This document shows positions 4,441 through 63,527 of a stretch of DNA of 64,000 bases, one piece after another. The notes beneath the pieces were generated by a model, which did not search any database, was not told the DNA's origin, and was given only the letters and a program-made list of their open reading frames with translations. The stretch spans positions 2,237 to 66,236 of the forward strand of contig JAPPFB010000018.1 in NCBI GenBank assembly GCA_028875225.1, in the 5' to 3' direction. The translations under genes and the position numbers were made by a program. Each line of letters opens with the position of its first letter. Within the stretch, counting starts at the first letter, position 1. Source of the stretch: Chloroflexota bacterium. Lineage in GTDB: Bacteria; Chloroflexota; Dehalococcoidia; Bin125.

Positions 4441-6808
<2,368 letters not shown>

Positions 6809-14188: not shown

Positions 14189-14308
14189 AGAGCTCCCCCT
14201 CTGGGCCAACTGGGCCGAAGGGCCTGAGGGGGCCCGCTTTCGCCTGTCCTTCGGGATACGGGGAGCCCGCTCAGTCGCTCCGCGACAGCTCCCCCGGAGG
14301 GGGAGCTC
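14189..14308. repeat. Inverted pair of ~45 bp palindromic repeat units (MITE-like composite)
   Basis: Left arm GAGCTCCCCCTCTGGG...CTGAGGGGGCC, ~30 bp spacer, right arm is the reverse complement (...GCTCAGTCGCTCCGCGACAGCTCCCCCGGAGGGGGAGCTC). The same unit recurs at 7 other loci. The 25 nt AACAGACAAGAGCTCCCCCTCTGGG also occurs at 52069-52093. Confidence 0.8.
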
Positions 14309-14333
14309 TTGATCGTCGAGACATGGAGCAGCA

Positions 14334-15497: not shown

Positions 15498-15574
<77 letters not shown>

Positions 15575-17113: not shown

Positions 17114-17157
17114 CGACCTCCCCCTCTGGGGGAGGTGTCACGAAGTGACGGAGGGGG
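17114..17157. repeat. Single ~45 bp palindromic repeat unit
   Basis: GACCTCCCCCTCTGGGGGAGGTGTCACGAAGTGACGGAGGGGGC in the divergent region between the MFS and amidohydrolase genes. Confidence 0.8.
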
Positions 17158-17220
17158 CTCCCTCGAACGCTCACACACTATCCTGATCGCCAACGACCGC
17201 CAGAGACCGAGAGACGTCCC

Positions 17221-23520: not shown

Positions 23521-23600
23521 GGTCAGCCCCTCTCAAGTCTGGGGTGAGGATAGCCACTCCAGGGCTATTGATTGACGAACAGGGCTGAGTCGAACGGCGC

Positions 23601-24029
23601 TTACTGCCGAATGCCCTTGAGGCGGACAGCTGGCAGCCGCCTAAGTCGCTGATTCAGCGGATCCACTTCTATGCCGAGAGATTCCAGTGCGGTCACGCCA
23701 AGCAGCGGTTCGGCGTCGTCATCGCCAAACATAACCGTTGAGCCAACAATCTCCCCAAGGATCTCGAGTCTTGCGACGGCAATGTCGAGGCGCAGTTCGC
23801 TGCCGTCGGCCAAGACGTAGACGCGCTGCCCATCAGGTTCGATGCCAATCTCCTCCAGATGACATCTCGGAACCAAGGAATCCGTCGCACCCGTGTCGAC
23901 CAGAAACAAACCGCTCCACTCGCGGTTGTGATCGCCGGGATTACTCACATTGACGGTCACGTGCGTGGCCCCCATGGCAGGGCTCCTACTCGTAGGCTCT
24001 TGGTTTGATGATACCAGTTTGATAGTCAT
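23601..24029 (-). CDS. Retropepsin-like (clan AA) aspartic protease
   Basis: 142 aa (or 125 aa from ATG at 23975; both have GAGGAG-type RBS). FLVDTGATDSLV active-site D-T-G motif. Local GC of about 58%, below window average. Confidence 0.6.
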   Translation of the reverse strand: MTIKLVSSNQEPTSRSPAMGATHVTVNVSNPGDHNREWSGLFLVDTGATDSLVPRCHLEEIGIEPDGQRVYVLADGSELRLDIAVARLEILGEIVGSTVMFGDDDAEPLLGVTALESLGIEVDPLNQRLRRLPAVRLKGIRQ

Positions 24030-24041
24030 GTGGGAGTCTCC

Positions 24042-26228: not shown

Positions 26229-26267
26229 AACCGCCTCCATCGCCTGTCAATCCAGTGCGAGTAGAGG

Positions 26268-30050: not shown

Positions 30051-31385
30051 TCAGCGGCTGGCGCCGACCGGCGGAGTGTCGACCAGCGTGCCATCGGCAA
30101 TGAATCCGTCGATCTCTTCGCCCGAGAATCCGAGCTCTTCGCAGATTTCCCGGTTGTCTCCGCCCAGAAGCGGCGCCGGACGCATCTGCGCCGGTCCCCA
30201 GTCGCTGAAGTGGATCGGGAAGCCGCCGTACTCGTAGACGCCGACGCCGGGCTGATCCCACTCAACGATGAATCCCCGCTCGCGCAGATGCTCGGACTGG
30301 ACCAGGTCGCCATTGGTCATCACCGGCAAGGCGGTAACGTCTTCCGCTTGCAGTTGCTCCGTCAGGACGAACCGGTCCTGGTCGCGAGTCCATTCGCCGA
30401 TCAGGTCGTCAAGCTCGTCGTGATGCTCGAAGCGACCCTCCAGCGTCTCGAATCGTCGATCGTCGAATCGCTCGTCCGTGACGACCTCTCGGAATCTCAA
30501 CCAGGCCGCGTCATCTTCAATCGTGATGGCGATCCACATGTCCATCGACTCGCGTGCGTCCGGACGCTCGTCGCGGCAGCGGTAGACGCCCTGCGGTGCG
30601 GAGCTTCTGGATCGATTCCCGCGCCTCGGAGCCTGTCCCTTCACTGAGGTCTCGAGGATCAGGTCGCCGGCGACCGCAGCATTGGTTTGCAGCTGCGACA
30701 GGTCAACGAAACTGCCGCGACCGGTTTCCTCGCGTTCCCAGAGTGCCGCCAACACGGCGAACGCGCCATGTAGCCCGCCGATCGGGTCGGGGAATGCGTG
30801 ACCCATCTTCATCGGTCCGTCCCCGACGTAACCGGTTGCCGATGCTGTGCCGGCATGCGCTTCGAGCACCGGTCCATAGGAGACTCGCTGCCGAAACGGC
30901 CCGGTGTGGCCGTAACCCGTGCAGGACACCGAAATGAGTCGTGGATTCCACTGTCTGACCGTCTCGTAGTCGATGCCCAGGCTCTTGGCTCCGCGAGGAC
31001 TGAAGTTGTCGACGATCACATCCGACGTTTCCACCAACCGCCGCCAGATGCGCTTGCCGGAGGCGGTCTTCAGATCGGCGCAGAGGCCGCGCTTGTTCCG
31101 GTTGTGCTTGTTGAAGATGCCGGCCCGATTCCACGGCTCCGGCTCGGGCTCGCCCTCGGGAAAGACCGAAGCGCGCAACGTCGGCTCCACTGCTTCGCCG
31201 CGCCGCCAATCGTCAAGCGCGGCGCGCAGCGACGGATCGTCCGGCAGCCGTCCGCCGCGCGCGTTGTCCTGCTCGACTTTGATCACGTCCGCGCCCAGAT
31301 CGCCGAGCGTCCGGCCGACCAGCGGTCCCGCCCAGGCGTAGCCGAACTCGACCACACGGACGCCCGACATCATTCCTTCAGTCAT
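30051..31385 (-). CDS. Family III CoA-transferase (CaiB/BaiF-like)
   Basis: 444 aa. VRVVEFGYAWAGPLVGRTLGDLGADVIKVEQ. Start overlaps the upstream paralog stop. Confidence 0.85.
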   Translation of the reverse strand: MTEGMMSGVRVVEFGYAWAGPLVGRTLGDLGADVIKVEQDNARGGRLPDDPSLRAALDDWRRGEAVEPTLRASVFPEGEPEPEPWNRAGIFNKHNRNKRGLCADLKTASGKRIWRRLVETSDVIVDNFSPRGAKSLGIDYETVRQWNPRLISVSCTGYGHTGPFRQRVSYGPVLEAHAGTASATGYVGDGPMKMGHAFPDPIGGLHGAFAVLAALWEREETGRGSFVDLSQLQTNAAVAGDLILETSVKGQAPRRGNRSRSSAPQGVYRCRDERPDARESMDMWIAITIEDDAAWLRFREVVTDERFDDRRFETLEGRFEHHDELDDLIGEWTRDQDRFVLTEQLQAEDVTALPVMTNGDLVQSEHLRERGFIVEWDQPGVGVYEYGGFPIHFSDWGPAQMRPAPLLGGDNREICEELGFSGEEIDGFIADGTLVDTPPVGASR

Positions 31386-35339: not shown

Positions 35340-35384
35340 AGCGCTCCCCCTCTGGGGGAGCTGTCGCGGAGCGACTGAGGGGGC
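35340..35384. repeat. Single ~45 bp palindromic repeat unit
   Basis: AGCGCTCCCCCTCTGGGGGAGCTGTCGCGGAGCGACTGAGGGGGC immediately upstream of the MFS start. Confidence 0.8.
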
Positions 35385-35507
35385 TGTCTGTCGCCTAGTG
35401 ACGGAGCGAACTGCTCTCCGTCGTGAGATGTCACCGCTTCCAGCGAGGGAGGCTGAAGGTACGGGTGCTGTCCGGCCCGCCGGATCACGACGGAGTCGGT
35501 CGGCGGC

Positions 35508-43208: not shown

Positions 43209-45608
43209 TTAGTCGTCGGACGAACTCAGCCCACCACGAGCAATCAGCACTGGCGCAGTCGGAACATCCGACGTGATCTCCAGCGCATATAACTCCGCGA
43301 TCTGCTCGTCGTCGTAACCCAGCTCCGACAGCACCTCGTGATTGTGCTCGGCAAACCTGGGGGCCGCGCGGCGGATCGATGGGTTCGTTCGGCTGAATCT
43401 CCAGGGCCAACTCGGATACGGATAGACGCCCACGACCGAATGCTCTACCCATTGATAGAAGCCGCTGGCGTGGATATGCGGGTCGTGCAGCACCTGCCAG
43501 TTGGCCAGGATTGGCGCCGCCGATACGCCGCCCCGTTGCAGTTCCCACGCGCCCTCGTACTGTTCACGCTCGCTCGTCCACGCTTCAATCGCGGCGTCCA
43601 GCTCGTCGTGACGCGCAATCCGCCCCTCAAGAGATGCCAACTCCGAATCAGCCAGCAGATCATCGCGTCCGATCACCTCGCACAGCGCGAACCAGTCCGC
43701 ATCGCTCTGCACCGACACCGCAATCCAGCAATCCTCGCCGGCCGCGCGGTACGCGCCCTGCGGAGCGGAGCGTCGATCGCGGTTGCCATTCGGCCGGCGA
43801 ATCTCGCGGGTCGTCTGATACTCCATCAGCGCCTCGAAGAAGTACGCGGCTCCGGCCTCGTTCAGCGCGACGTCGATGTACTGGCCGTCGCCCGTCGCAT
43901 CCCGATGTTCCAGACCGGCCAGGATCGCCACCGTCGCATGGTTGCCCGAGACCGGATCGGCGTAGAACAACGGCGTCCGGCGCACCTGGTCGGCCTGGTA
44001 GCCAGTGACCGATGCCAGACCCGACGACGCCTCGATGTTCGACCCATACGCTGACCAGTCCCGCCAGGGTCCAGTCGCGCCGAAGCCCGACATCGAGACG
44101 TAGATCAGTCCTGGGTTCTCCTGGCGCACGGTCTCGTAGTCAAGCCCGAGGTTGGGCATCACCCGGGCCGAGTTGTTCTCAACGAACACGTCCGCCTCCC
44201 GCATCAGCTCGAGGAAGATCTGCTTACCCTCCTCGGCCGACAGATCGACGACCAAGTCGCGCTTGTTCCGGTTGAGCAGGTTGAAGTACATCGCGCGGTC
44301 GTAGGGATACTTCTGCGGATCCTGCGTCGGACCGGGCATGAACAACGCCCGCGTCGCCGGACGCGCCGCCCACTCGAGCTTGACTACATCCGCGCCCAGG
44401 TCACCCAGGTGCCGTCCGACAATTGGACCCGCCCAGTTGCCGGTCAGTTCGACCACCTTGAGCCCGGCGAGCGGCAAGTCGGTGGTCGCCATCGCGGGCG
44501 GCGGTGTCGGCGCGGGAGTCGAGGCGAACTCCTCCATCAAGGCCGTTGTGTGCTGTCCCAGCTTCGGCGCTTCGCCCTGCCGCTCTGCTGGCGTCGCCGA
44601 CATCAGGTAGGCCGGACCGGGAAAGCGCAAATCATCCCACTCGGCGTCGTTGCCGTACTCCCACCAACCCCGAGTCGCCAGCTGGATGTTGTTCGTCAGC
44701 CCCCGCGCATCGAGTACCGGTGTGCATGCGATTCTCAGTTCCTGAGCCTTTGTCGCGACCTCCTCCGCGTCATAGTCCTGCGCCCACGACTCGACATCCT
44801 CATACAGCTGACCCAGCTGCTTGCGCCAGTCGTCGATGTCGTTGATCTCGACGCTCTCCATCCGCTCCGGCTGATCGATCAGCAGGAAGATGTTGGGATT
44901 CGGCACTGCCCGCATGAACAGCGCCCAGCCGTCCCGCGTTTTGGTGAAATCGTGCGGAACCCGATTCATCGCAGATCCGCTCGCGATCCAGGACGAGATC
45001 AACCACGCGTGCGCTGACAGGTTGGACTCCAGCGCCGACACCTCGACCGACTGTCCGTGGCCCGAGCGCCGCCGTTCCCGTACGGCGGTCAATGCGCCAA
45101 TCGCTGCATGAACGCCCGCGTGTAACTCCGATTGTCCGCCCGGCAGCATCAGCGGTGCGCCGTCCGGATCGCCGGTGAAGAACATGTAGCCGCCCATCGC
45201 CCATGTCGCGATCTCCGATCCGCGCCAGCCCGCGTATAGTCCCTCGGAGCCCCAGGGCGAGAGCTCAATCCGAATCAACCGCTCCGCCAACACGGTCGGC
45301 AGCGCCGACCGCCAGCTCGATCCCTCATCGAGGATCAACACGTCCGCGGCCCGGCACAGCCCGGCGAGCAACCTGCGCGCCGATTCCTCGTCATCGGGAG
45401 CGGCTGACTCCTTGCCGCCGGCGAGATGCGCCCAGGGACCGCCCCAGGCCCGATCCTTCGCGCCCCACGCCCGCAGGAACGATCCCTCAGGCGGTTCCAC
45501 AACGACCACTCGGGCGCCAAGGTCGCCCAACAACTTCGAACAGTACGCCCCGCCCAATCCCGAGCTCAGATCAACGACCAGCAATCCGTCCAATGCTCGA
45601 GTGCTCAT
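43209..45608 (-). CDS. Tandem didomain family III CoA-transferase (two CaiB/BaiF modules fused)
   Basis: Start at ATG 45608 (MSTRALDGLLVVDLSSGLGGAYCSKLLGDLGARVVVVEPP) with GAGAGGA RBS. Second module LAGLKVVELTGNWAGPIVGRHLGDLGADVVKLE. The track ORF adds 36 spurious N-terminal codons. Confidence 0.8.
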   Translation of the reverse strand: MSTRALDGLLVVDLSSGLGGAYCSKLLGDLGARVVVVEPPEGSFLRAWGAKDRAWGGPWAHLAGGKESAAPDDEESARRLLAGLCRAADVLILDEGSSWRSALPTVLAERLIRIELSPWGSEGLYAGWRGSEIATWAMGGYMFFTGDPDGAPLMLPGGQSELHAGVHAAIGALTAVRERRRSGHGQSVEVSALESNLSAHAWLISSWIASGSAMNRVPHDFTKTRDGWALFMRAVPNPNIFLLIDQPERMESVEINDIDDWRKQLGQLYEDVESWAQDYDAEEVATKAQELRIACTPVLDARGLTNNIQLATRGWWEYGNDAEWDDLRFPGPAYLMSATPAERQGEAPKLGQHTTALMEEFASTPAPTPPPAMATTDLPLAGLKVVELTGNWAGPIVGRHLGDLGADVVKLEWAARPATRALFMPGPTQDPQKYPYDRAMYFNLLNRNKRDLVVDLSAEEGKQIFLELMREADVFVENNSARVMPNLGLDYETVRQENPGLIYVSMSGFGATGPWRDWSAYGSNIEASSGLASVTGYQADQVRRTPLFYADPVSGNHATVAILAGLEHRDATGDGQYIDVALNEAGAAYFFEALMEYQTTREIRRPNGNRDRRSAPQGAYRAAGEDCWIAVSVQSDADWFALCEVIGRDDLLADSELASLEGRIARHDELDAAIEAWTSEREQYEGAWELQRGGVSAAPILANWQVLHDPHIHASGFYQWVEHSVVGVYPYPSWPWRFSRTNPSIRRAAPRFAEHNHEVLSELGYDDEQIAELYALEITSDVPTAPVLIARGGLSSSDD

Positions 45609-45621
45609 CTGAGCGTTCCTC

Positions 45622-46377
45622 TCAAACCAGCGGCCAGGGATACGAACGACGACCGGTCGGCGGATCCGGCAATCGACCTTCCTCCACGACCCGTTCCGCC
45701 CGCCGACGCAACACATCCATCTCGCCCTCGCTCAGCAACCCGGACAGTCTCGCCGCCGCCTCGCCGCCGTTGTCGAGTCGTGGAATCAGATGCTGCACAT
45801 CCGCGATCAGCGACGGCTGAATCTGCTCTCCCGCGTAGTCCCAGATCACAGTCCGCAACTTCTCTTCCTGGTGGAACGACAGCCCGTTGTCGATCCCCCA
45901 CAGCTGGTCGCCGATCCCCTTGAGGATGTGTCCGCCCTTCCGGTCAGCGTTGTTGGCGATCCAGTCGAACAGCGCAAACTTGCGCATGTCGTCCGCATAT
46001 TGCTCGCGAAGCTCGAAGAACGTCCGGCTGTAATCCGTCGGGATGTACGCCTGCAGCGACCCGACCCCGTACTCCATCCCCTCCTCCCGCTCGATCGTCG
46101 GAGGGATCAGCTCCCAGCCCAGCGCCGCCGATAGCTGATAGGCCGCCACCTCGCGCCGGTACAGATTGGGTGGGAAATCCCACAGCGGATTCTCGCCCTT
46201 GCCGGGCTTGTAGATCGCGTAGCCGGGCATGGCGGCGTCTTCGTGCTGTAGTTCCAGCAGAAAGACGTAGTTCGAGGCGTACGGGACGCGCGCCCCGTCA
46301 GTGACCGTGGAGGTCTCCAGCCACGACGTCACCCGCTCGTCCAGCGGATCCCAGGACTGCTCCGGAAAGCGCTCCAT
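45622..46377 (-). CDS. Hypothetical protein, possibly SCO1664-family / PI3-PI4-kinase-like fold
   Basis: 251 aa. DWIANNADRKGGHIL resembles the catalytic-loop region of HipA/PI-kinase-like proteins. Weak assignment. Confidence 0.45.
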   Translation of the reverse strand: MERFPEQSWDPLDERVTSWLETSTVTDGARVPYASNYVFLLELQHEDAAMPGYAIYKPGKGENPLWDFPPNLYRREVAAYQLSAALGWELIPPTIEREEGMEYGVGSLQAYIPTDYSRTFFELREQYADDMRKFALFDWIANNADRKGGHILKGIGDQLWGIDNGLSFHQEEKLRTVIWDYAGEQIQPSLIADVQHLIPRLDNGGEAAARLSGLLSEGEMDVLRRRAERVVEEGRLPDPPTGRRSYPWPLV

Positions 46378-49799: not shown

Positions 49800-49916
49800 G
49801 ACCTCCCCCTTTGGGGGAGGTGCCCCGTAGGGGCGGAGGGGGCCTCCGCACATAGCGGAGCGCTCCAACCGAGCCCCCTCAGTCGCTACGCGACAGCTCC
49901 CCCAGAGGGGGAGCTC
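49800..49916. repeat. Inverted pair of ~45 bp palindromic repeat units (MITE-like composite)
   Basis: GACCTCCCCCTTTGGGGGAGGTGCCCCGTAGGGGCGGAGGGGGCC, 27 bp spacer, then GAGCCCCCTCAGTCGCTACGCGACAGCTCCCCCAGAGGGGGAGCTC, between divergent pepN and hydrolase genes. Confidence 0.8.
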
Positions 49917-50817: not shown

Positions 50818-52068
50818 ATGCACCTGATGTACTTCACCGAACAGCCGATGTCGGCCTACGACGAACATGCCGCCGAGGAGGGCGTCACCGCGCTGCTGTT
50901 CTCCAACTCCAACTTCGACCCCGTCGCCGGCTCGCAGCTCTACAACGATCGGCTGACCGAGTACAAGCTGGCCGAGGAGGTCGGCGTCGACGGGATCATG
51001 CTCAACGAGCATCACAACGCGCCCTTCTGCATGCAGGCCAAGTGCAACATCTGGGCCTCGGTGCTGGCCGGCGCCACCGAGCGCGTCAAAATCGTTCTGC
51101 TCGGCAACCCCCTCCCGCTGGCCGACAACCCGATCCGCCTCGCCGAAGAGCTGGCCATGATCGACATGATCTCCGGCGGCCGCCTCGTCTCCGGATTCGT
51201 CCGCGGCGGCGGCACCGAGCAGCTCGCCACCGGCGTCAACCCCGCCTACAACCGCGAGCGTTTCGAGGAGGCCCACGACCTGATCGTCGAAGCCTGGACC
51301 CGCCCCGGACCGTTCCGCTGGGAGGGCCGCCACTACCAGCACCGCGTCGTCAACCCCTGGGCGCTGCCGATGCAGCAGCCCCACCCGCGCATCTGGATCC
51401 CCGGCGTGCTCTCACGCGAGACCGTGATCTGGGCGGCCAAGCACCGCTATCCCTACATCGCGCTCAACACCACGATCGAAGCCACCAAGCGCATCTGGCA
51501 GACCTACGACGATGCGGCGCACGAGGTCGGCTACGACCCCGGCCCCGAGAACCGCGGCTACCTGCTCCGCGTTCACGTCGCCGACACGACCGAAAAGGCG
51601 ATGCAAAACGCCTCGCAGTTCATGTGGATGCAGGGCGAGTTCACCGGCCTCGCGCACCCGGTCTGGTCGAATCCCGCCGGCTACGCCTCGCCGCGCAACC
51701 GTGAGGCCCTGGTCGAGGTCATGAATGGCCGCCGACCCCCGCCGCGCGCACAGTCCTTTGACAACCAGATCGAAAACATGCAGATCATCGCCGGCACCCC
51801 GGACGAATGCATCCGCAAACTGCGCACCATCCTCGAGGAAACCCGGCCCGGCATCCTCGCCCTCTGGGGCAACGACGGCCGCGTCACCCACGAGGACTCG
51901 ATGCGCTGCATTGAACTGCTCGGCACCGAGGTCATGCCCGCCCTCCGAGACATCGGAGCCGAGCTCGACCTCGACGGCCCCTTCGACTCGGAGCCGCCCG
52001 TCAGCATCAACTACGACGAAGCCGCCAAAGCCCGCGTCGCCTCCGCCGCCGCAGCCTCCGGCGACTAG
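50818..52068 (+). CDS. LLM-class (luciferase-like) flavin-dependent oxidoreductase
   Basis: 416 aa, TIM-barrel LLM motifs (LNEHHNAPF, GGRLVSGFVRGGG). Confidence 0.8.
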   Translation: MHLMYFTEQPMSAYDEHAAEEGVTALLFSNSNFDPVAGSQLYNDRLTEYKLAEEVGVDGIMLNEHHNAPFCMQAKCNIWASVLAGATERVKIVLLGNPLPLADNPIRLAEELAMIDMISGGRLVSGFVRGGGTEQLATGVNPAYNRERFEEAHDLIVEAWTRPGPFRWEGRHYQHRVVNPWALPMQQPHPRIWIPGVLSRETVIWAAKHRYPYIALNTTIEATKRIWQTYDDAAHEVGYDPGPENRGYLLRVHVADTTEKAMQNASQFMWMQGEFTGLAHPVWSNPAGYASPRNREALVEVMNGRRPPPRAQSFDNQIENMQIIAGTPDECIRKLRTILEETRPGILALWGNDGRVTHEDSMRCIELLGTEVMPALRDIGAELDLDGPFDSEPPVSINYDEAAKARVASAAAASGD

Positions 52069-52077
52069 AACAGACAA

Positions 52078-52120
52078 GAGCTCCCCCTCTGGGGGAGCTG
52101 CCGCGAAGCGGCTGAGGGGG
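52078..52120. repeat. Single ~45 bp palindromic repeat unit
   Basis: GAGCTCCCCCTCTGGGGGAGCTGCCGCGAAGCGGCTGAGGGGGC, preceded by the same AACAGACAAG leader seen at 14181. Confidence 0.8.
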
Positions 52121-52177
52121 CTCCCCCACTCTCCTGACTCATTCCCCGATCCAATCCGAGACGAAAGACTCCTGGAA

Positions 52178-54058: not shown

Positions 54059-54418
54059 CTAATGTCCCTGTCCTGATTCGCCAATCTCAACTTCGGACCA
54101 GTCGAAGTTGTACACACACTGAACAAGTTCACGCCACCACTGGTAGTTGTCGGGGGTGACGCTCTGTCCCTCCGGTGCGAACGCTTGTCCCGGACGGCGG
54201 GTCCTTTTGTTCACAACCAGGGCGGAAAGCCAAGGCCGACCGTATGGTCGGCACACTTCGTCCTCTATGAATCTCAACGGACCTGGCACGGCACGTGCGA
54301 TGAGTCCCGCCTTGCGTTCGATCTCGCCGTATGTGATGAGTTCCCTTTGCGCTGCGCACTCCTTGAGTAACGTCAGAATCTCTCTTGTGTACTTCGGTGT
54401 CTTCCTGTGCCTCCTCAT
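54059..54418 (-). CDS. Hypothetical protein in low-GC pocket, translationally coupled to upstream CoA-transferase
   Basis: 119 aa. Local GC about 56%. ATGA start/stop overlap with the CaiB gene at 54415. Confidence 0.5.
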   Translation of the reverse strand: MRRHRKTPKYTREILTLLKECAAQRELITYGEIERKAGLIARAVPGPLRFIEDEVCRPYGRPWLSALVVNKRTRRPGQAFAPEGQSVTPDNYQWWRELVQCVYNFDWSEVEIGESGQGH

Positions 54419-55671
54419 CGCAACTCCGACAAGATCTCATCCGTATGCTCCCCAAGCAGCGGAGGACGCCGTGTGATGCCCCAGCTCCCCTTCGTCAACT
54501 GATACGGCGCGCCCGGGTAGATCACGTCCCGTCCTAGCTCCGGATGCTCCACCTTGACCTGCATGCCTCGATCGACGAAGTGCGGATCCTCCAGCGCTTC
54601 CTCGGGACTGTGAATCACGCCGACCTGGAAGCCGAAGTTTTGCGCCTTGGTGAAGAACTCGTAGGCGGTCAGCTTCGAGGCCAGCAGGTCGAACGCCTCT
54701 CGGCCCGCCCCAAAGATCGCCAGCAACTCTTCGTTGTCGCCTCGGAACACATCGGCCAGCGAGAAGCTCTCCAGCTCCGCCCCGACAAGGAGCAGCGCTG
54801 CCTCGGGCAGCTGGTCCAGCAGACCCTCGTCCTCCAACCACCGGTAGCAGAGACCAAACTCCGCCGGTCGACGCGGCGGAATGCCGGTGTTCACGTAGCG
54901 GCCGTCGGCGCACATGATCTGCGACGGCATCGACGGCGCCACGCCCGCGTGCCGCCCGGTCTGACGCTGCACCGTGGAGTGCGAGACCAGCCACGAGTAC
55001 GACCCTGCCTCAGTCGTGACATTCACCGACGCATTGATGTTGACGTTGATGTGCTGCCCAACACCCGTTGCGTCGCGGTGCAGGAGCGCCGTGAGAATCG
55101 ACATGAAGGCATAGTTCGAGCCCGTGTGATAGGCCTGCTGGCCGCCGCCGCGGACCGGCGGCAGCGAGTGGTCGTCGTAGCCGTTCATCCAGGCGAAGCC
55201 GCCGTTGGCGGCCAACGTCAGGTCGGTGTGCGGCTCATCGTCTCGCACCGAGCCGAAGCCGAAGTTGGTGATCGTGCACCAGATCAACCCTGGGTTGTCG
55301 GACATGATCTGGTGGTAATCGACCCCAAGACGGCCGACCGGATCGTAGGTGTTGGTGTCGAAGATGATGTCGGCCGACTCGACCAATTTGAGGAACGCGT
55401 CGGCATTCGAGCGGTCGTTGAAGTCCATCACGACGCTGCGCTTGGACGTGTTGTAGTACCAGAAGAAGAGTGATCGCTCGTGATGCGGCTCGTCGTCGAC
55501 GAACGGCTCGTACTGCCGCGACGGATCGCCCTCGGGTGGCTCGATCTTGATCACATCCGCGCCCATGTCGGCCAATAGCTTGCCGCACCAGGCGCCTCGT
55601 TCATCGCCGATCTCAAGCACGCGCAGATCGTCGAGCGCCATCATTGCCAGTGGGTTCGAGTTGGTCGTCAT
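54415..55671 (-). CDS. Family III CoA-transferase (CaiB/BaiF-like)
   Basis: 418 aa. LRVLEIGDERGAWCGKLLADMGADVIKIEPPEG. Confidence 0.85.
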   Translation of the reverse strand: MTTNSNPLAMMALDDLRVLEIGDERGAWCGKLLADMGADVIKIEPPEGDPSRQYEPFVDDEPHHERSLFFWYYNTSKRSVVMDFNDRSNADAFLKLVESADIIFDTNTYDPVGRLGVDYHQIMSDNPGLIWCTITNFGFGSVRDDEPHTDLTLAANGGFAWMNGYDDHSLPPVRGGGQQAYHTGSNYAFMSILTALLHRDATGVGQHINVNINASVNVTTEAGSYSWLVSHSTVQRQTGRHAGVAPSMPSQIMCADGRYVNTGIPPRRPAEFGLCYRWLEDEGLLDQLPEAALLLVGAELESFSLADVFRGDNEELLAIFGAGREAFDLLASKLTAYEFFTKAQNFGFQVGVIHSPEEALEDPHFVDRGMQVKVEHPELGRDVIYPGAPYQLTKGSWGITRRPPLLGEHTDEILSELR

Positions 55672-56945
55672 CAGATCACGCCCTCCTCGTGCAGGCCTGC
55701 GATCTCATCCTGGCTCAAGCCCAGCAATTCGCCGTAGACGTAGTCGTTGTCCTCGCCCAACACTGCCGCGCCGCGCGTCATCGACCAGTCGGTCTTCGTG
55801 AAGTGCGCGGGAATCCCGTCGACCCGCACGCGGCCCATCTCCGCCTGCCGGATTGTCGGCCAGAGCTGCGCCTCGGCCGAATTGACGTCCTGATCAATCC
55901 GCTGCTCCGGCGTTTGCACGGCATTCGCCGGCACTCCGGCCGCGCGCAGCAGCTCCGCCGACTGGAACGGATCGCGGCGCATGCACCACTCGCCGATCTT
56001 TGAGTCCAGGTCGTCCTGCGCCGACAATCGTCCGGCCAGCTGGCCGTAATCGTCGTTGGCGGCCCAATCACAGCCGTCGGCGACCAGCACGTCGCGCATC
56101 GCGTGCCAGTCCTCGTCATTGCGGCAGGCAATGGCGATCCAGGCCTCGTCGAACGAGCCGGGAATCGGCTGTGCCGCATAGATGTTGTGCGGCGCCATCG
56201 CCGGGAACTGCGAATGGTTGGCGTCCGGGAATCCGTCGCGGCGCAGCGGTCGGCCGTTGACCGTGTAGTCGAGCAGCACCGGACCGTTCAGTGTCAGGGC
56301 CGCCTCGGTCGCGGCAACATCGACGTACTGCCCTTCGCCGGTGCGATTGCGGTGGTGGATGGCCAGCATGATCGCCATCGCCATGAAGTAGGCGCCGGTG
56401 TGGTCCATGTAGGAGTAGCCCCAGCCGGCCGGCGGCTGGTCGGGTATCGCCGACGACATCGTCAGGCCGCTGGTCGCCTGCACGATCGGACCCCAGGTCT
56501 TGAACTTCTCGTACGGCCCCGAGTGTCCGAAGCCGCAGTTGGAGACGTAGATGATGTCTTCCTTGATCTCCTTGAGCGCGTCGTAGTCGTAGCCCCACGA
56601 GCGCATCACGCCGGAGGAGAAGTTCTCGGTCACGCAGTCGGAGATCGCGACCAGCCGCTCGAACAGCTCGCGTCCCTTCTCCGTCTTGATGTTGAGCGAG
56701 ATGCCCAGCTTGCCTACGTTGTGGTTGTTGAATGGTCCGCCCAACTCGGGACCGCGCCGGTCGTCCACATAGGGCGGCATCCCGCGCAGGATGTCCCAGC
56801 GGCCATGGTTGGACGGATCCTCGATCCGGATCACTTCGGCGCCAAACGCAGCCATGAACTTGGTCGCGCCGGCGCCGGCCAGCTGACCGGTGAAATCGCA
56901 GATCCGCAGATGCGAAAGCGCCTGGCTCTTGACGTGATGGGGCAT
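55671..56945 (-). CDS. Family III CoA-transferase (CaiB/BaiF-like)
   Basis: 424 aa. LRICDFTGQLAGAGATKFMAAFGAEVIRIEDP. Confidence 0.85.
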   Translation of the reverse strand: MPHHVKSQALSHLRICDFTGQLAGAGATKFMAAFGAEVIRIEDPSNHGRWDILRGMPPYVDDRRGPELGGPFNNHNVGKLGISLNIKTEKGRELFERLVAISDCVTENFSSGVMRSWGYDYDALKEIKEDIIYVSNCGFGHSGPYEKFKTWGPIVQATSGLTMSSAIPDQPPAGWGYSYMDHTGAYFMAMAIMLAIHHRNRTGEGQYVDVAATEAALTLNGPVLLDYTVNGRPLRRDGFPDANHSQFPAMAPHNIYAAQPIPGSFDEAWIAIACRNDEDWHAMRDVLVADGCDWAANDDYGQLAGRLSAQDDLDSKIGEWCMRRDPFQSAELLRAAGVPANAVQTPEQRIDQDVNSAEAQLWPTIRQAEMGRVRVDGIPAHFTKTDWSMTRGAAVLGEDNDYVYGELLGLSQDEIAGLHEEGVI

Positions 56946-57001: not shown

Positions 57002-57129
57002 GAGTTCCCCCACTGGGGGAGCTGTCCTCGACGCAGTCGAGGGCTGAGGGGGCCTGCCGCCAGTTTTGCGAAGTGCAGGCACCGAGCCCCCTCCGTCACT
57101 TCGTGACACCTCCCCCATTGGGGGAGGTC
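57002..57129. repeat. Inverted pair of ~45 bp palindromic repeat units (MITE-like composite)
   Basis: GAGTTCCCCCACTGGGGGAGCTG...GGGCTGAGGGGGCC, 30 bp spacer, then GAGCCCCCTCCGTCACTTCGTGACACCTCCCCCATTGGGGGAGGTC, between divergent CaiB and SDR genes. Confidence 0.8.
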
Positions 57130-57151: not shown

Positions 57152-57925
57152 ATGGCCAAAGTCGCATTCATCACCGGAGCCAGCCGTGGGATCGGCAAGC
57201 AGCTGGCGCAGGATTTCGCGATTGCCGGCTATGACATCGCCGCCGTTGCCCGCTCAACCGCCGACACGCCGACCAAGCTTCCCGGCACGGTCAACGAGAC
57301 CGCCCAACTCGTCGAGGAAGCCGGCCAGCAGTGCCTGCCAATCGGCGCCAACCTGGCCAAAGTGGAAGATCTCGACCGCGCCGTCGCCGAAACCTACGAC
57401 CGTTTCGGCCAGATCGACGTGTTGATCAACAACGCCGCGATCGCGCCACCGGGCAAGGCGCTGGAGTCAGGACGCCATCTCTGGGGCCTGGCCGTCGAGA
57501 TCAACGTCAACGCGCCCTTCTACCTGACCCACGCCGTCGCGCCAAAGATGGCCGAGGCCGACGGCGGCGCGGTGATCAACATCGGTTCCGGCGCCTCCGT
57601 CAGCCCCGACTTCGGCCGCGCCAGCTACACGACGACCAAGCGCGCGCTGGAGGCGATGTCGGAGTCCCTGGCCAGCGACCTCAAGGGCACCGGCATTTCG
57701 GTCAACTGTCTCAGGTTGGAACTCTCCGTCTGGAGCGAGGGCTACGCCTTCACCCTCGGCGAGCAGGCCAAGCAGATGGACTTCGAAGACCCGATCATCA
57801 TGTCCGACGCCTGCCTCTGGATCGTCGCCCAGGGCCCCGAGTGGACCGGCCGGATCGTCACCATCGCCGACCTGCGCAAGTACGGAGCGGTCCGCCCGGT
57901 GACGCGCAAGACCTTCGACGACTAG
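57152..57925 (+). CDS. SDR-family oxidoreductase
   Basis: 257 aa. FITGASRGIGK, NNAA, Y-x3-K catalytic motif. Confidence 0.85.
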   Translation: MAKVAFITGASRGIGKQLAQDFAIAGYDIAAVARSTADTPTKLPGTVNETAQLVEEAGQQCLPIGANLAKVEDLDRAVAETYDRFGQIDVLINNAAIAPPGKALESGRHLWGLAVEINVNAPFYLTHAVAPKMAEADGGAVINIGSGASVSPDFGRASYTTTKRALEAMSESLASDLKGTGISVNCLRLELSVWSEGYAFTLGEQAKQMDFEDPIIMSDACLWIVAQGPEWTGRIVTIADLRKYGAVRPVTRKTFDD

Positions 57926-59346
57926 TCAGCTGCGTCAGCGGGGTTGAGGTCGCTCAACTCTCGATGGGTCAAGCTGCGGGTGGTGACAGCCAGTTCATCG
58001 AGCTCGGGAGCGTCCTTGCCCTCGGTGCCACCACCGAGTTCGCGCATTCGTCGCGCTCCGACGAGCAAGTCGCCTTGCAGAGAGCCGACCCCGGTGTCGT
58101 AAGCTTTGGCCGTGCTCGAGATTGCCCGACCGAGGCGGGCGTAGTGCTCGGCATGTCGGCGAACTCCGTCATAAATCGTCTGGGCGTGCTGCTGAATCTC
58201 ATTGGCCTTCTCGTGAAAGCGTTCCTGGCGCAATGCCTCAGCCACGCCGGTCACTAACGCGAGCATGGTGACTGGAGTCGCCAGCAACACGCGATGCTTC
58301 TCGAACGCCTCGGCAATCAGATCCGGGCGGGCTCGGGTCGCCGCTTCGAGAATGCTGTCCGATGGTATCCACATAACGACCACGTCGAGCGCCTGGTCGA
58401 TGTTCTCCGCGTACTCCACTCGAGCCAGGTCGCGAGCGGTGTTCAAGACGTTCGCCGCATGACTCTTGAGCAGTTCCTGCTGCTGTGTTTCGTCCCTGGC
58501 GTCGAGCGCCGCTCGATAATCGTCAAAGGGGACCTTTGAATCGATCACGATCTTTCGTCCGCCCGGCATCCGCACAACGACGTCAGCACGGCCAGATCCT
58601 TGATCGGTGTTGACCTGGGTCTGGTAGTCGGTGTCTGGGCGCATTCCTGCGAGTTGCAAAATGTTCTCCAGGGTTCTTTCACCCCAGTCTCCCCGCAACT
58701 GACTTGAGCGCAGGATTTCGCGTAGGTCGCCGGTCTCAGAACTCAGTTGGCCGACCTGCTGCTGGGTGGCTTTGATCAGTTCGCTGACGCCCTCATATGC
58801 GCCCTCGCGATGCTTTTCCAAATCAATGATCTGCCTGCGCAACTCGTCGAGGCTCTTGCCCACGGGTTCGACTCGCTGCTTCAGCTCTTGCTCGGCGAGT
58901 TCTCGTTGGCGCTTGAAATCTTCAGACGCCTGCTTACGGAACTCTTCGTTACTCGCTTTGGCGACATCTGCCGCGATGCCCTTAAACAGGGCGTCGATTT
59001 CTTCCTGCTTCTTGTTGAGTTCCTCCATGCGCGCCTCGCGATCCGAGGCGACCTGCTGCAGTTCCTCGCGTGCTTCCCCGAGGCTGTCGCGCAGTCCCGA
59101 CACACGAGATCGTTCCTCGTCCAATTCCGCAGCGGTCTGTTGCAACTGCGAGGAACGTTCCTCCAGCCGCGCCGATGCTTCGGTGCGCTGCTGTTCAACA
59201 ACATGCAACGTGCTCCGTACTTCCTCCAGCTCGCCGCGCAGATCGGCAGCGTTTGAGCGCAGTGCCGAAGCCTCTCTGCGAACGATCCACGCGACTGATC
59301 CGCCAACCAGCAACCCAATGATCAAGCCAATGACAATTTCCACCAT
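57922..59346 (-). CDS. rmuC: DNA recombination protein RmuC
   Basis: 474 aa. N-terminal TM helix, long coiled-coil, C-terminal RmuC nuclease-like region (GRADVVVRMPGGRKIVIDSKVPF). Confidence 0.8.
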   Translation of the reverse strand: MVEIVIGLIIGLLVGGSVAWIVRREASALRSNAADLRGELEEVRSTLHVVEQQRTEASARLEERSSQLQQTAAELDEERSRVSGLRDSLGEAREELQQVASDREARMEELNKKQEEIDALFKGIAADVAKASNEEFRKQASEDFKRQRELAEQELKQRVEPVGKSLDELRRQIIDLEKHREGAYEGVSELIKATQQQVGQLSSETGDLREILRSSQLRGDWGERTLENILQLAGMRPDTDYQTQVNTDQGSGRADVVVRMPGGRKIVIDSKVPFDDYRAALDARDETQQQELLKSHAANVLNTARDLARVEYAENIDQALDVVVMWIPSDSILEAATRARPDLIAEAFEKHRVLLATPVTMLALVTGVAEALRQERFHEKANEIQQHAQTIYDGVRRHAEHYARLGRAISSTAKAYDTGVGSLQGDLLVGARRMRELGGGTEGKDAPELDELAVTTRSLTHRELSDLNPADAAD

Positions 59347-60425: not shown

Positions 60426-62015
60426 ATGGAAGTTCCGCTGCTAGTCAACGATTTTCTGCGCCGAGCATCGAAGCTCTACGGACCCTCCGAGGCCGTCGTC
60501 GACGGCGACCAACGCTTCACCTGGGCCGAGTTCAACAGCCGCGTGAATCAGCAGGCGCACGCGCTGCTCGACGCTGGCATCGGCAAGGGCGACCGCGTCG
60601 GCATCATCGCCCCCAACTCGCACCAGTTCCTAGAAACGTTCTACGCCACCGCCGCGATCGGCGCGGTCATCGTGCCGATGAACTACCGTCTGATTCCCGC
60701 CGACTTCGAGTACATGCTCGAACACTCCGGTTCGCAGGTCGTCCTCGTCGACGCCGAGTTCACCCACCTCGTCGATGAGATTCGCGGCAACGTCAACACC
60801 GTCGAGCATTTCATCGCCATCCCCTATGGCGACGCGCCGATCAATCCGGGCTGGACCAACTACGAGGACTGGATCGGCGAACAGTCGACCGCGCCGCCTC
60901 CTGATCCGGGACTGGAAGAGACCGATCTGCTCTCTATCAACTACACCTCGGGCACGACGGCTCGGCCCAAGGGTGTGATGATCACCCACCGCAACGCCTA
61001 CATCAACGCCTACAACTTCATCGCCCACCTGCGCATCTCGCAGGACGACGCCGAGATGTGGACGTTGCCGATGTTCCACGCCAACGGCTGGGGCGGTCCC
61101 TACGCGATCACGGCGATGGGCGGCAAGCATGTTGTCCTGCGCGCGCCCGAAGCGGCCGACATCTACCAGGTCATCCAAGACGAGAACTGCACCTTCGCCT
61201 GCATGGCTCCGGCCGTTCTGGCCCGCATCCTCGAATTCGAGCGCAAAGACGACTACAACATCACCGTCCGCCCGCGCTTCACGGTCGCCGGCGCGCCCCC
61301 GCCGCAATCGTTCATCGAGCGCCTGGAAAAGGAAATCGGCTGGGAGTTCATTCAGATCTACGGCCTGACTGAAACCTCGCCGATCCTCACCGTCTCCGAA
61401 GTCAAGCCCTACCTCGGCGCCGACGAGGACGGTTACTTCGGGACCAAGGTCCGCGCCGGACACGACGTGATCGGCGTCGAGGTGAAGGTCGTGCGCGACT
61501 CCGGCAAGGAGGTCGCCTGGGACGACGAAGAAGTCGGCGAAGTCGTCGCCCGCTCCAACGTGGTCCTGCGCGGTTACTGGCAGCAGCAGGAGGAGACCGA
61601 CAAGGTCATCGTCGACGGCTGGTTCCATACCGGAGACATGGCCACCGTCAACCTGGACGGCTACATCAACATCGTCGACCGCGCCAAGGACGTGATCATC
61701 TCCGGCGGAGAGAACATCTCCTCAATCGAAGTGGAAGACGTCCTCTACGACCACCCCGCCGTCCTCGAAGCCGCCGTCATCGGAGTCCCATCGGAGCAAT
61801 GGGGAGAAACCCCGCTCGCGTTAATCGTCCCCCGAGAAGGCCACGACGTCACCCGAGACGACATCGTCGCCCACTGCCGATCCACCATGGCCGGCTTCAA
61901 AATCCCCCGGCAAGTGGAGTTCGTGGAGACGTTGCCTCGGACGGCGACGGGCAAGTTGAAGAAGTTTGAACTCCGAGAGGCCTACTGGCAAGGCGTCGAA
62001 AAGCGGGTGAACTAA
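60426..62015 (+). CDS. Acyl-CoA synthetase / AMP-dependent ligase
   Basis: 529 aa. YTSGTTARPKGV AMP-binding motif. GYGLTET, GDMA, C-terminal K (GKLKKFELRE). Confidence 0.85.
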   Translation: MEVPLLVNDFLRRASKLYGPSEAVVDGDQRFTWAEFNSRVNQQAHALLDAGIGKGDRVGIIAPNSHQFLETFYATAAIGAVIVPMNYRLIPADFEYMLEHSGSQVVLVDAEFTHLVDEIRGNVNTVEHFIAIPYGDAPINPGWTNYEDWIGEQSTAPPPDPGLEETDLLSINYTSGTTARPKGVMITHRNAYINAYNFIAHLRISQDDAEMWTLPMFHANGWGGPYAITAMGGKHVVLRAPEAADIYQVIQDENCTFACMAPAVLARILEFERKDDYNITVRPRFTVAGAPPPQSFIERLEKEIGWEFIQIYGLTETSPILTVSEVKPYLGADEDGYFGTKVRAGHDVIGVEVKVVRDSGKEVAWDDEEVGEVVARSNVVLRGYWQQQEETDKVIVDGWFHTGDMATVNLDGYINIVDRAKDVIISGGENISSIEVEDVLYDHPAVLEAAVIGVPSEQWGETPLALIVPREGHDVTRDDIVAHCRSTMAGFKIPRQVEFVETLPRTATGKLKKFELREAYWQGVEKRVN

Positions 62016-62055
62016 CACCTTCCTCCATCAACGAGGTGACCCGAGCGGAAGACAA

Positions 62056-62527
62056 GACCTCACCCTCCGGGGGAGGTGCCCCGAAGGGGCGGAGGGGGCC
62101 CGACGAGCCGTCAGCCATGCCGAAACGCGATCGCGAGTACGCGCCACGAGAGCAGATCGAATTCGCCAGGAAGCTGCGCGCAAACGCCACCGATGCGGAG
62201 GTGCTTCTCTGGGGTCGACTCCGACGTCGCCAGGTCGCCGGGTGTCGGTTCCGACGTCAGCATCCGATTGGTCGGTATGTGGTCGACTTCGCATGCGTCT
62301 CTGAGCGTCTTGCCATCGAGCTTGACGGCGGTCAGCACGCTGAGCGACAGAAACGTGATGAAACCAGAGATCAAGAACTGAGAGCCAAGGGCTACCGCAT
62401 TCTCCGCTTCTGGAACCACGAAGTCCTTGGTGATCTTGACGCTGTCATAGACCGTATTGCGGCCGAATTGCCCTGACGGGCGGGCCCCCTCAGTCGCTTC
62501 GCGACAGCTCCCCCGGAGGGGGAGCTC
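62056..62527. mobile_element. Candidate small TIR element: DUF559 nuclease gene bracketed by inverted copies of the ~45 bp palindromic repeat
   Basis: Left unit GACCTCACCCTCCGGGGGAGGTGCCCCGAAGGGGCGGAGGGGGCC (62056-62100). Right unit in opposite orientation GGGCCCCCTCAGTCGCTTCGCGACAGCTCCCCCGGAGGGGGAGCTC (62482-62527). The enclosed DUF559 ORF has its ATG 16 nt after the left unit and its stop 5 nt before the right unit. The composite repeats elsewhere look like the same element with the interior removed. Confidence 0.45.
62117..62476 (+). CDS. DUF559 (Vsr-like / restriction-endonuclease-fold) protein
   Basis: Internal ATG (MPKRDREYAPREQIEFARKLRANATDAEVLLW...GCRFRRQHPIGRYVVDFACVSERLAIELDGGQH...KGYRILRFWNHEV) has the typical DUF559 layout. 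Track ORF 62036..62476 adds 27 repeat-derived codons. Confidence 0.75.
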   Translation: MPKRDREYAPREQIEFARKLRANATDAEVLLWGRLRRRQVAGCRFRRQHPIGRYVVDFACVSERLAIELDGGQHAERQKRDETRDQELRAKGYRILRFWNHEVLGDLDAVIDRIAAELP

Positions 62528-62531
62528 TTGG

Positions 62532-63461
62532 CTACCCCAGACACCCACTCAGGAAGTTGTTCACCCGATTCGTCGCGTCCATCCCCGCCGGCGTGGGGAA
62601 GCCGTCGAAGCCGTGCGGCGCGTCGGGGAAGACGTGCAACTCCGTCTCGTGACCCGCGGCTTGCCAGCGAGCGGCCATGAACAGTGAGTCGTCCAGCAAC
62701 GGATCCAGCGTCCCGACGGTGAAGATCGCCGGCGGCATGTCCGACAGATCGGCCAGCAGCGGGGTCACGTCGGGCAGCTCGCGCAGTTCCGGCTCCTCCG
62801 GCGTCACGTAGTGGTCGATGAACCACTCCATGATCGGCGACGAGAGAATCAGGTTGCGCTCGCCCCACAAACGCGCAGATGGGGAGTGGCGCAGGTCGTA
62901 GACGCCGTAAGTCAGCGCCGCGCCCTGGAAGCCGGTGTAGCCGTGGTTGTCGCGCATCCTGAGCAGCGTCGTCGCCGAGAGATGACCGCCGGCCGACTCG
63001 CCGCCGATCGTAAAGACATCGGTGCCGAACTCCGATTGCCCGTTCTCGACCAGCCAGACGGCAGCCGCCTCACAGTCCTCGTTCGGCGCCGGATACGGAT
63101 GCTCCGGCGCGAGCCGGTACCCGACCGAGACGACCGCCTGTTGCGTCGCCTGGGCGCGACCCCAGAGGCGCTCGTCGGCGCCGTCGTGCGAGCCGATCAC
63201 CCAGCCGCCGCCGTGGATGTGGAGGTACACGCCGCGCACGACCGGCGGGATGAAGACGCGCACGGGAATCTCACCCGCCGGCCCCGGCACCGACCGCTCC
63301 TGCGCGATGTCGTCCAGCTTCGCCGGCGGCGGACCGAATGGCCCGCCTTCAGCCAGCACATCGCGCAACTCTTGCGCCTCCATCTCGTGCCAGGGCTTGC
63401 CCTGCGCCGAGGCCTCCTCGATCATCACGTTCAACGCCTGCGTCTGTGGGTCGGGTCTCAT
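62532..63461 (-). CDS. Alpha/beta-hydrolase fold-3 esterase/lipase (HSL family)
   Basis: HGGGW oxyanion motif and GESAGGHL nucleophile elbow. Real start probably MRPDPQTQ (about 63461), because the first 16 track codons translate the repeat. Confidence 0.8.
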   Translation of the reverse strand: MRPDPQTQALNVMIEEASAQGKPWHEMEAQELRDVLAEGGPFGPPPAKLDDIAQERSVPGPAGEIPVRVFIPPVVRGVYLHIHGGGWVIGSHDGADERLWGRAQATQQAVVSVGYRLAPEHPYPAPNEDCEAAAVWLVENGQSEFGTDVFTIGGESAGGHLSATTLLRMRDNHGYTGFQGAALTYGVYDLRHSPSARLWGERNLILSSPIMEWFIDHYVTPEEPELRELPDVTPLLADLSDMPPAIFTVGTLDPLLDDSLFMAARWQAAGHETELHVFPDAPHGFDGFPTPAGMDATNRVNNFLSGCLG

Positions 63462-63482
63462 GGTGTGCTCCTGCCTGACGAA

Positions 63483-63527
63483 GACCTCCCCCTCCGGGGG
63501 AGGTGTCACGAAGTGACGGAGGGGGCC
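63483..63527. repeat. Single ~45 bp palindromic repeat unit
   Basis: GACCTCCCCCTCCGGGGGAGGTGTCACGAAGTGACGGAGGGGGCC, near-identical to the unit at 17114. Confidence 0.8.

Follow-up and report, generated by a model that had tools for sequence, protein, structure and literature searches.

A DUF559 nuclease gene nested between inverted copies of a dispersed, triplex-motif-like repeat in a Chloroflexota genome

This report concerns a small DUF559 gene and the repeats around it in a 64-kb window of DNA from a Chloroflexota bacterium of the class Dehalococcoidia (GenBank assembly GCA_028875225.1, contig JAPPFB010000018.1, positions 2,237 to 66,236). The window is the whole stretch analysed and represents ~2% of a roughly 3-Mb genome; the related loci with which it was compared cover 5-20 kb each. 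The gene lies between two oppositely oriented units of a repeat that recurs through the window, and inverted repeats likewise flank the large majority of its homologues. Its open reading frame (ORF) runs on the + strand from an ATG at 62117 to a TGA at 62476 (119 codons plus the stop) and is present as a single copy within the 64 kb. A repeat search delimited two inverted arms of 56 nt, 82% complementary and with 378 nt between them (Table 1). The left unit consists of one hairpin, ACCTCACCC-TCC-GGGGGAGGT, a second hairpin, GCCCC-GAA-GGGGC, and a G-rich tail, GGAGGGGGC, which is directed toward the DUF559 gene, the last base of the unit lying 17 nt from the ATG. The right unit follows the stop codon by 5-7 nt, and its tail, C-rich on the + strand, is also directed at the gene, while the right arm abuts the stop codon of the hydrolase gene beyond. 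An earlier note on this DNA had placed the gene between oppositely oriented units, and the inverted arms, the ORF and the Pfam match given below confirmed its coordinates and architecture in every detail.

The two units belong to a family that is dispersed over the window. The 12-mer core CCTCCGGGGGAG occurs eight times when up to one mismatch is allowed, against 0.9 expected, and none of 100 shuffles reached eight. Using an nhmmer profile, we located 12 units of a ~46-nt repeat, made up of the bracket pair, four singlets and three gene-less doublets. All of them are extragenic, and they occupy every kind of intergenic context, divergent gene pairs included. The three doublets each consist of a + unit followed by a - unit across a spacer of ~27-37 nt; the gene-less composites share the tail-to-tail geometry of the bracket, in support of the earlier note. 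In the doublet D49, the B-type unit on the left and the A-type unit on the right reproduce the pairing found around the DUF559 gene, and the site orthologous to D57 in a related genome (L001) also holds a doublet. The unit at 63483-63527 is absent from the orthologous spacer of L001 (11375-11480), where ~30 nt of unrelated sequence is found; units have thus been gained or lost within the clade, on a time scale of ~13% nucleotide divergence. When the window and seven related loci were searched against Rfam at the gathering threshold, a tRNA alone was matched, and the repeats are accordingly covered by no described RNA family.

Table 1. Positions of repeat units, neighbouring genes and the tRNA gene in the 64-kb window.
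Feature	Position	Strand or layout	Remarks
Left inverted arm, B-type unit	62047-62102, core 62056-62100	+	nhmmer E=5e-11
Right inverted arm, A-type unit	62481-62536, core 62483-62527	-	nhmmer E=2.6e-14
AMP-binding (acyl-CoA synthetase-like) gene	60426-62015	+	Upstream neighbour of the DUF559 gene
Alpha/beta-hydrolase gene	62532-63509	-	Convergent downstream neighbour of the DUF559 gene
Gene-less tail-to-tail doublet D14	14190-14311	Unit + 14190-14234 (hairpin 1 degenerate), spacer ~29 nt, unit - 14264-14311	Single-stranded DNA fold z=-4.8
Gene-less tail-to-tail doublet D49	49800-49916	B-type unit +, 27-nt spacer, A-type unit -	Fold z=-7.3
Gene-less tail-to-tail doublet D57	57002-57129	Unit + (longer hairpin 2), spacer, unit -	Fold z=-6.2
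Single repeat unit	17115-17160	+	nhmmer E=1e-14
Single repeat unit	35340-35385	+	Profile search
Single repeat unit	52078-52123	+	9 nt past the stop of the luciferase-like monooxygenase gene
Single repeat unit	63483-63527	+	Upstream of the hydrolase start
tRNA gene	15498-15571	+	Sole Rfam match in the window

Flanking repeats were surveyed around the genes for 80 relatives of the window protein (47-68% identity, one genome per species, the sample being picked by similarity to that protein), which together with the window gave 81 genes. The sample covers Dehalococcoidia, Binatia, alpha-, beta-, gamma- and delta-proteobacteria, Nitrospirota, Omnitrophota, Elusimicrobia and other taxa. When the 200 nt before conserved codon 17 were scanned against the 200 nt that follow codon 114, 68 of the 81 homologues (84%) had a flanking inverted repeat with a score of 15 or more (median score 24.5), compared with 0.25% of 1620 random control segments taken from the same loci at the same spacing. 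With boundaries defined by the ORFs themselves, 29.5% of DUF559 genes had a flanking inverted repeat versus 2.7% of 963 other ORFs (Fisher p=6.5e-15) and 2.2% of the small ORFs (<700 nt) in the surveyed loci; a scan that allowed only 30 nt inside the ORF yielded ~46%, which is an underestimate. Whether DUF559 genes elsewhere are repeat-flanked, a question raised in the earlier note, is answered in the affirmative by these counts for the homologues surveyed, and the bracketing of the gene by inverted repeats is not due to chance.

The bracket also has a conserved geometry. Counted within 100 nt of the gene core, hairpins whose 5' arm is pyrimidine-rich and whose tail is G-rich reach ~100 times the density found at distances above 2 kb, and those pointing inward outnumber the others by 26 to 7 upstream and 21 to 4 downstream, such that the order in homologues is hairpin, G-rich tail, gene, C-rich tail, hairpin. 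A consensus, YCCCTCTCCC-N3-6-GGGAGAGGG-NN-GGGGTGAGGG, is shared by 84 gene-proximal units. As in the window, the arms belong to dispersed families, with more copies and gene-less tail-to-tail doublets within the surveyed loci. In one of these, L028, the gene is enclosed by a pair of complete, identical doublets of 112 nt (9714-9825 and 10423-10534) that are directly repeated. The proteins are 50-60% identical across phyla and show little taxonomic order. The family was found in 37 of 72,556 plasmid records, mostly megaplasmids, and in three of 50,697 phage records; given this rarity, the family is chromosomal.

The structure of the repeat was defined from 26 aligned units, drawn from the window and from five genomes related to it. 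Hairpin 1 has the form A(G/C)CTCCCCC, 3-nt loop, GGGGGAG(C/G)T; it is followed by hairpin 2, with a 5-bp stem and a GAA-type loop, and by the tail (T/G)GAGGGGGC. Standard pairs make up 97.5% of the cells in the two helices, as against ~50% when the partners are slid, and 97.4% of the cells pair in the arms of hairpin 1. Compensatory changes were present at three pairs (for instance GC/CG at 13:12, and UA/CG/GC), and the covariation observed was reached by none of 500 shuffles. The doublets, treated as single strands, fold far better than shuffled sequences (z=-4.8 to -7.3). Two main subtypes are distinguished by hairpin 2, which reads CCCC/GGGG in B-type and TCGC/GCGA in A-type units. They also covary at alignment columns 3, 21 and 36, the A-type combining G-C with a tail T and the B-type C-G with a tail G; this three-position pattern matches a triad that would extend a triplex, but common descent explains it equally well, as there are only two main subtypes.

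The layout recalls that of the BoxC/PIT/'triplex motif' (TM) repeats, also designated TMECO or HPGQ, which were recognised in E. coli as early as the 1990s, occur in more than 260 other bacterial genomes, and have had neither an origin, nor a spreading mechanism, nor a partner protein assigned to them (PMC4666352, PMC5100583). Members of the TM class have three segments, namely a C-rich arm, its G-rich complement and a mirror image of the latter that is again G-rich, and can potentially form an intrastrand triplex in E. coli and many other bacteria; the TMECO consensus is CCCTCNCCC-N3-6-GGGNGAGGG-N3-GGGNGAGGG (PMC4666352). The repeats are conserved, with A and B types paired on opposite strands and with triplex, hairpin and G-quadruplex potential (PMC4666352, PMC5100583). 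They have been tied to genomic instability and are not associated with transposons, phages or plasmids, and PIT elements had neither promoter nor terminator activity in published tests cited in the same work (PMC4666352). The window unit has the same three segments, in that the tail GAGGGGG mirrors the G-arm GGGGGAG beside the C-arm CTCCCCC in nearly all 26 aligned units. The two kinds of repeat further share an extragenic, dispersed and highly conserved character, frequent inverted pairs of A and B subtypes and a link to local rearrangement. They differ in the arms, which in the published elements are CCCTCTCCC/GGGAGAGGG, and in the loops. The latter measure 1-6 nt in the ITxF definition and N3 in the TMECO consensus, whereas the second loop of the window unit is 14-20 nt long and itself forms the conserved 5-bp hairpin, with compensatory changes. 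For this reason, the window unit is a structural variant and not a canonical member of the class, and the repeat is a Chloroflexota variant of the BoxC/PIT/TM potential intrastrand-triplex motif. Outside the Chloroflexota, the consensus of gene-proximal units corresponds in sequence to the published TMECO consensus (PMC4666352), and the DUF559-flanking units of proteobacteria, Nitrospirota and other taxa fit it. Among 191 TMECO-consensus elements in 1.33 Mb, 95 fall in the 2.6% of sequence that adjoins DUF559 genes. The earlier note had described the repeats as a MITE-like family (miniature inverted-repeat transposable elements); its account of dispersed units with gene-less composites stands, but membership of the BoxC/PIT/TM class had gone unrecognised. 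A G-quadruplex reading, which fits the proteobacterial motif, was rejected for the window, where A-type units have only two long G-runs.

The protein encoded between the repeats matches Pfam DUF559 (PF04480) with E=8.4e-41 (138.7 bits versus a cut-off of 20.6; profile positions 3-108 of 109) and is 46% identical to E. coli YcjD. It scored 93.6 bits against the YcjD equivalog model NCBIfam NF007294, whose cut-off is 218, and so is a member of the YcjD family but of a different orthologous group. A database entry of identical sequence is named 'MAG: endonuclease domain-containing protein [Chloroflexota bacterium]'. Among solved structures, a Neisseria DUF559 protein comes closest (PDB 3HRL, E=2.4e-25), followed by the catalytic domain of the homing endonuclease I-Bth0305I (3R3P, E=6e-4). 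An AlphaFold model (pLDDT 83) was matched by Foldseek to 3HRL (E=4e-7), 3R3P (E=1.4e-4) and 1VSR, the E. coli Vsr protein (E=1.2e-2), and residues D57, E68, D70, Q73, H74, R97 and N100 are invariant in 34 homologues. The Vsr-like PD-(D/E)xK fold attributed to the protein in the earlier note is therefore predicted to be intact, in view of the model's matches and the invariance of D57, E68, D70 and H74. The gene is under purifying selection (dN/dS 0.09-0.15), and the Pfam scan reported no Y1_Tnp match for it.

With Vsr and with Caulobacter VsrA, a DUF559-domain protein with Vsr-like activity (PMC12907096), the window protein shares its fold, its catalytic-type residues and its pipeline annotation. 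It differs from Vsr in scoring 18.8 bits under the mismatch endonuclease model TIGR00632 (cut-off 97.85) and in having no adjacent cytosine methyltransferase gene; in the window as in the loci L164-L166 of the clade, DUF559 has no methyltransferase gene beside it. Known Vsr biology offers no explanation for the repeat bracket. Among relatives with a characterised function, I-Bth0305I, an EDxHD homing endonuclease, comes closest in sequence as well as in the Foldseek comparison, and it exemplifies a Vsr-like fold in the service of a selfish break-and-copy element. It is located within a group I intron of a phage and possesses an additional DNA-binding domain, whereas the 119-aa window protein is encoded by an ORF that stands free between two convergent-side genes, flanked by repeats, and not inside a host gene, a self-splicing intron or an intein. 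A role in defence was also considered and set aside, as PADLOC returned only weak matches ('homing endonuclease', E=1e-4; DpdF, E=3e-3) and the family is rare on plasmids and phages.

The history of the locus was followed in six related genomes (the window, L001, L084, L164, L165 and L166), whose AMP-binding proteins are 90-99% identical. Neither the site nor the orientation of the DUF559 gene differs among the six, and it always has a B-type unit on its left and an A-type unit on its right. There is, in this constancy of orientation and of arm subtypes, no sign of inversion, and an invertible on/off element was rejected as a candidate. The DUF559 proteins are 68-75% identical in amino acids, as compared with 91-95% for the neighbours, and dS is 1.8-2.5 versus 0.5-0.7; the gene also has a lower G+C content at third codon positions (GC3) than its neighbours, i.e., 0.60 versus 0.85-0.88. 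We do not claim replacement of the cassette from the high dS, for which low codon bias (GC3 0.60) and saturation may suffice, and the protein distances agree approximately with those of the neighbouring genes. A metagenome scan with the hydrolase gene revealed one more filled ortholog (L084), a locus with a different island (L154) and non-orthologous matches, with L085 not clearly orthologous, but no clean empty site. The DUF559 gene is carried by all six syntenic genomes, and a presence/absence difference was seen in a repeat unit, the one at 63483 missing in L001.

Several rearrangements were observed at or near such loci. In L001 (9593-9990), the nearest of the syntenic genomes, a ~166-nt unit is present in three tandem copies, two more than the single copy of the window and L084; it comprises the left repeat unit and a diverged 5' DUF559-like fragment, and ends in the last bases of the AMP-binding gene. 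In L154 (209-1373), the end of the hydrolase (99% identical in protein and 87% in DNA) is followed directly by two low-GC ORFs on the reverse strand, of 165 and 176 aa, the larger having an HExxH motif; they replace the repeat, DUF559 and the AMP-binding gene, the alternative junction falling exactly at the hydrolase stop. The two may represent a pair of DUF4411/PIN-like and ImmA/IrrE-like peptidase genes. Identical DUF559 proteins from four other lineages (P0055, P0038, P0084 and P0025) always have the same upstream neighbour, and only the downstream context varies. The P0055 protein (L167, L168 and L170) is found with three downstream contexts (DEAD helicase, AAA ATPase and TPR protein), which diverge ~500 nt after the gene start. 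Sequence identity runs up to the end of the downstream hairpin unit and no further, which reflects either a rearrangement breakpoint at the repeat or an effect of assembly.

Both partners can be followed in E. coli. In strain K-12 (NC_000913.3 1347000-1354000, analysed as L081), ycjD (features 4190-4480) has sapF on one side and fabI on the other, and its stop codon is overlapped by a tail-less hairpin. A diverged ghost copy of the last ~50 nt of the gene is present downstream (4320-4370 resembles 4425-4475); the full unit ~170 nt downstream is TMECO no. 9 (1,351,239-1,351,204; PMC4666352). Among 5426 complete E. coli genomes, 3346 (62%) contain the whole fabI-ycjD-sapF region, and genomes without it, e.g., O157:H7, have the eefRABCD efflux island in its place, a replacement that has been described previously (PMC12817139). 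Over the E. coli genomes, a 61-nt TMECO query was matched at a median of 18 places per genome (range 1-32). In a sample of 60 evenly spaced genomes, the 37 rows that keep a full-length ycjD-adjacent copy were taken as ycjD-positive because their share matches the 62% with a complete ycjD region. These rows have 14-29 places, while many of the other 22 chromosome rows have 1-7 and O157:H7 and a few others have 11-24. The higher count with ycjD is only suggestive, being confounded by phylogeny and phylogroup.

Literature searches returned no paper linking DUF559 to such repeats, subscription-only papers (e.g., Hoyne et al., 2000) aside, in agreement with the earlier note, to whose author no DUF559 nuclease was known as the mobilising enzyme of a terminal inverted repeat (TIR) element. 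The words ycjD, DUF559 and endonuclease are absent from the two papers on the repeat (PMC4666352, PMC5100583), and nothing relevant was found on Vsr with REPIN, Vsr-like proteins with inverted repeats, or RAYT with endonuclease. A survey of programmed inversions did report DUF559 proteins as enriched targets, with an odds ratio of 14.3 (PMC9881135), and this enrichment is an indirect record of the flanking inverted repeats.

What is observed is the architecture, its near-universality among homologues, the conserved structure of the repeat, the intact fold and the stable residence of the gene. On the analogy of RAYT/REPIN systems, i.e., REP-associated tyrosine transposases and the doublets of repetitive extragenic palindromic (REP) sequences, we propose with a probability of about 0.5 that these form one conserved module, in which a resident YcjD/DUF559 nuclease is nested tail-to-tail between cognate repeats that it most likely recognises. 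As in RAYT/REPIN systems, a short palindromic repeat native to the genome brackets an enzyme gene in inverted copies and also occurs elsewhere without the gene, as singlets and as inverted doublets, and there are no target duplications; the gene is likewise single-copy (here in 64 kb), chromosomal, vertically inherited and of long standing at one locus (six genomes). The differences are that DUF559 is an unrelated hydrolytic nuclease of Vsr fold and not a transposase of the HUH/Y1 (IS200/IS605-like) type, that the 5' end of the window repeat lacks a GTAG-type tetranucleotide, and that the sequence of the DUF559-linked repeat is conserved across phyla, whereas REP sequences differ from species to species.

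According to this proposal, the nuclease would bind or nick the repeat, in folded or duplex form and possibly in the folded form at the tail, and breaks at repeats would be repaired by copying from other members of the family. Such copy repair might keep the repeat family homogeneous while adding and removing units, render repeat sites prone to rearrangement, and keep the DUF559 gene embedded in repeats. A broader and more tentative proposal, which we regard as possible, is that YcjD-type DUF559 proteins are the dedicated nucleases of BoxC/PIT/'triplex-motif' repeats. They would act on these in the folded state, and the spread and homogenisation of the repeats, together with the genome instability at such sites, would be due to them. 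A number of observations weigh against a nuclease-repeat module. No flanking repeat was detected at 13 of the 81 homologues, and in the Dehalococcoidia locus L002 the gene is bracketed (9878-9911 and 10383-10416) by a different hairpin repeat without a G-rich tail, CCCCCGCTGACCAC-ATTGA-GTGGTCAGCGG, of which 12 more copies lie in 20 kb. The bracketing of K-12 ycjD is imperfect, with no upstream unit and with the nearby full unit pointing outward. O157:H7 has no ycjD yet ~14 repeat copies, which implies that the repeats persist without the gene. Finally, a hydrolytic nuclease alone does not explain the birth of new repeat copies.

Three other explanations were weighed. The earlier note had cast the gene as the autonomous parent of a TIR element and the composites as deletion-derived MITEs. 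In such a classical transposon DUF559 would be the transposase, the units its TIRs and the doublets internally deleted copies, and terminal inverted repeats of 56 nt, gene-less composites with the same end arrangement and an association of gene and inverted repeat that is general among homologues are indeed what it predicts. The likeness to MITEs and autonomous TIR transposons ends with these terminal repeats and short non-coding elements with the same ends. No direct repeats indicative of target-site duplication were found beside the gene-bearing copy or the three doublets, and the doublet spacers resemble neither the inner ends of the gene-bearing copy nor each other. Single units are as common as doublets, and in place of a multi-copy parent there is a single copy, syntenic in six genomes, with a constant upstream neighbour and under purifying selection. 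Identical copies in different contexts were not found, and the family is nearly absent from plasmids and phages. Nor is the enzyme of a transposase type: Vsr-fold nucleases hydrolyse DNA, and to our knowledge neither strand-transfer nor covalent-intermediate chemistry is known for them. By these tests the gene is unlike a currently mobile cut-and-paste element and like a resident gene, and the parent-and-MITE model is not supported and, in our view, highly improbable.

A less improbable, though still unlikely, alternative is a homing-type cassette. The repeats would spread by other means, DUF559 would cut gene-less doublets between their tails and the gene would be copied in by repair; the two units would then be homology arms, and the doublets empty target sites instead of derivatives. 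The nearest functionally characterised relative by sequence and fold is a homing endonuclease, I-Bth0305I, and the best PADLOC match, weak as it is (E=1e-4), is likewise to 'homing endonuclease'. The gene sits exactly where a doublet has its spacer, the B/A pairing recurs in D49, and spacers unlike the gene ends are expected of empty sites. Remnants of a second copy next to the gene in L001 and E. coli, the GC3 of 0.60 amid neighbours at 0.85-0.88, and the 50-60% cross-phylum identity with little taxonomic order are also in keeping with homing. However, three empty doublets coexist unconverted with the gene in the window, one copy occupies one conserved locus in six genomes, identical proteins never have a different upstream neighbour, and no orthologous empty doublet was found at the locus. 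The enzyme and the repeat might, alternatively, have no enzyme-substrate link, a case that we judge slightly more doubtful than homing. The gene could be captured or retained at recombination-prone or replication-stalling sites, the repeats could serve as an insulator or mRNA end for a potentially toxic gene, or they could be the arms of an invertible switch. TM loci are rearrangement hot spots in E. coli (PMC4666352), synteny breaks exactly at the DUF559-adjacent repeat in P0055, in L154 and where eefRABCD stands for ycjD in E. coli, and the enrichment of DUF559 among predicted programmed inversions (PMC9881135) points the same way. Against this, only 2.2% of other small genes in the same loci are flanked, inward orientation and close spacing are conserved across phyla, gene orientation and arm subtypes are unchanged in six of six clade genomes, and the promoter and terminator tests of PIT elements were negative (cited in PMC4666352).

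Beyond the module itself, an RmuC-family gene (57922-59346, - strand) lies two genes upstream of it in the window and in L164-L166. A part in restraining inversion at short inverted repeats has been ascribed to RmuC; the proximity is probably coincidental synteny. The window further contains at least six paralogues of CoA-transferase family III (22327-26240, 30051-31385, 43209-45716 and 54415-56945), two of them double-length fusions, which give rise to its long direct-repeat families D4-D8; this profile would be typical of SAR202-type Dehalococcoidia/Chloroflexota. A luciferase-like monooxygenase gene is located at 50818-52068.

DUF559 is a very large family, with 7252 matches at E<=1e-10 in one search, for which no roles have been described beyond a Vsr-like activity in Caulobacter and that of a distant homing endonuclease. 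The phylum-spanning link between DUF559 and the repeat merges two open questions into one testable hypothesis, and may give the long-orphan BoxC/'triplex motif' repeats a candidate enzyme; E. coli K-12 carries both partners, with ycjD and 23 TMECO copies. If the proposal is true, the module would be a second system of resident enzyme and short repeat beside RAYT/REPIN, independent of RAYTs, with a different catalytic chemistry and present in many bacterial phyla.

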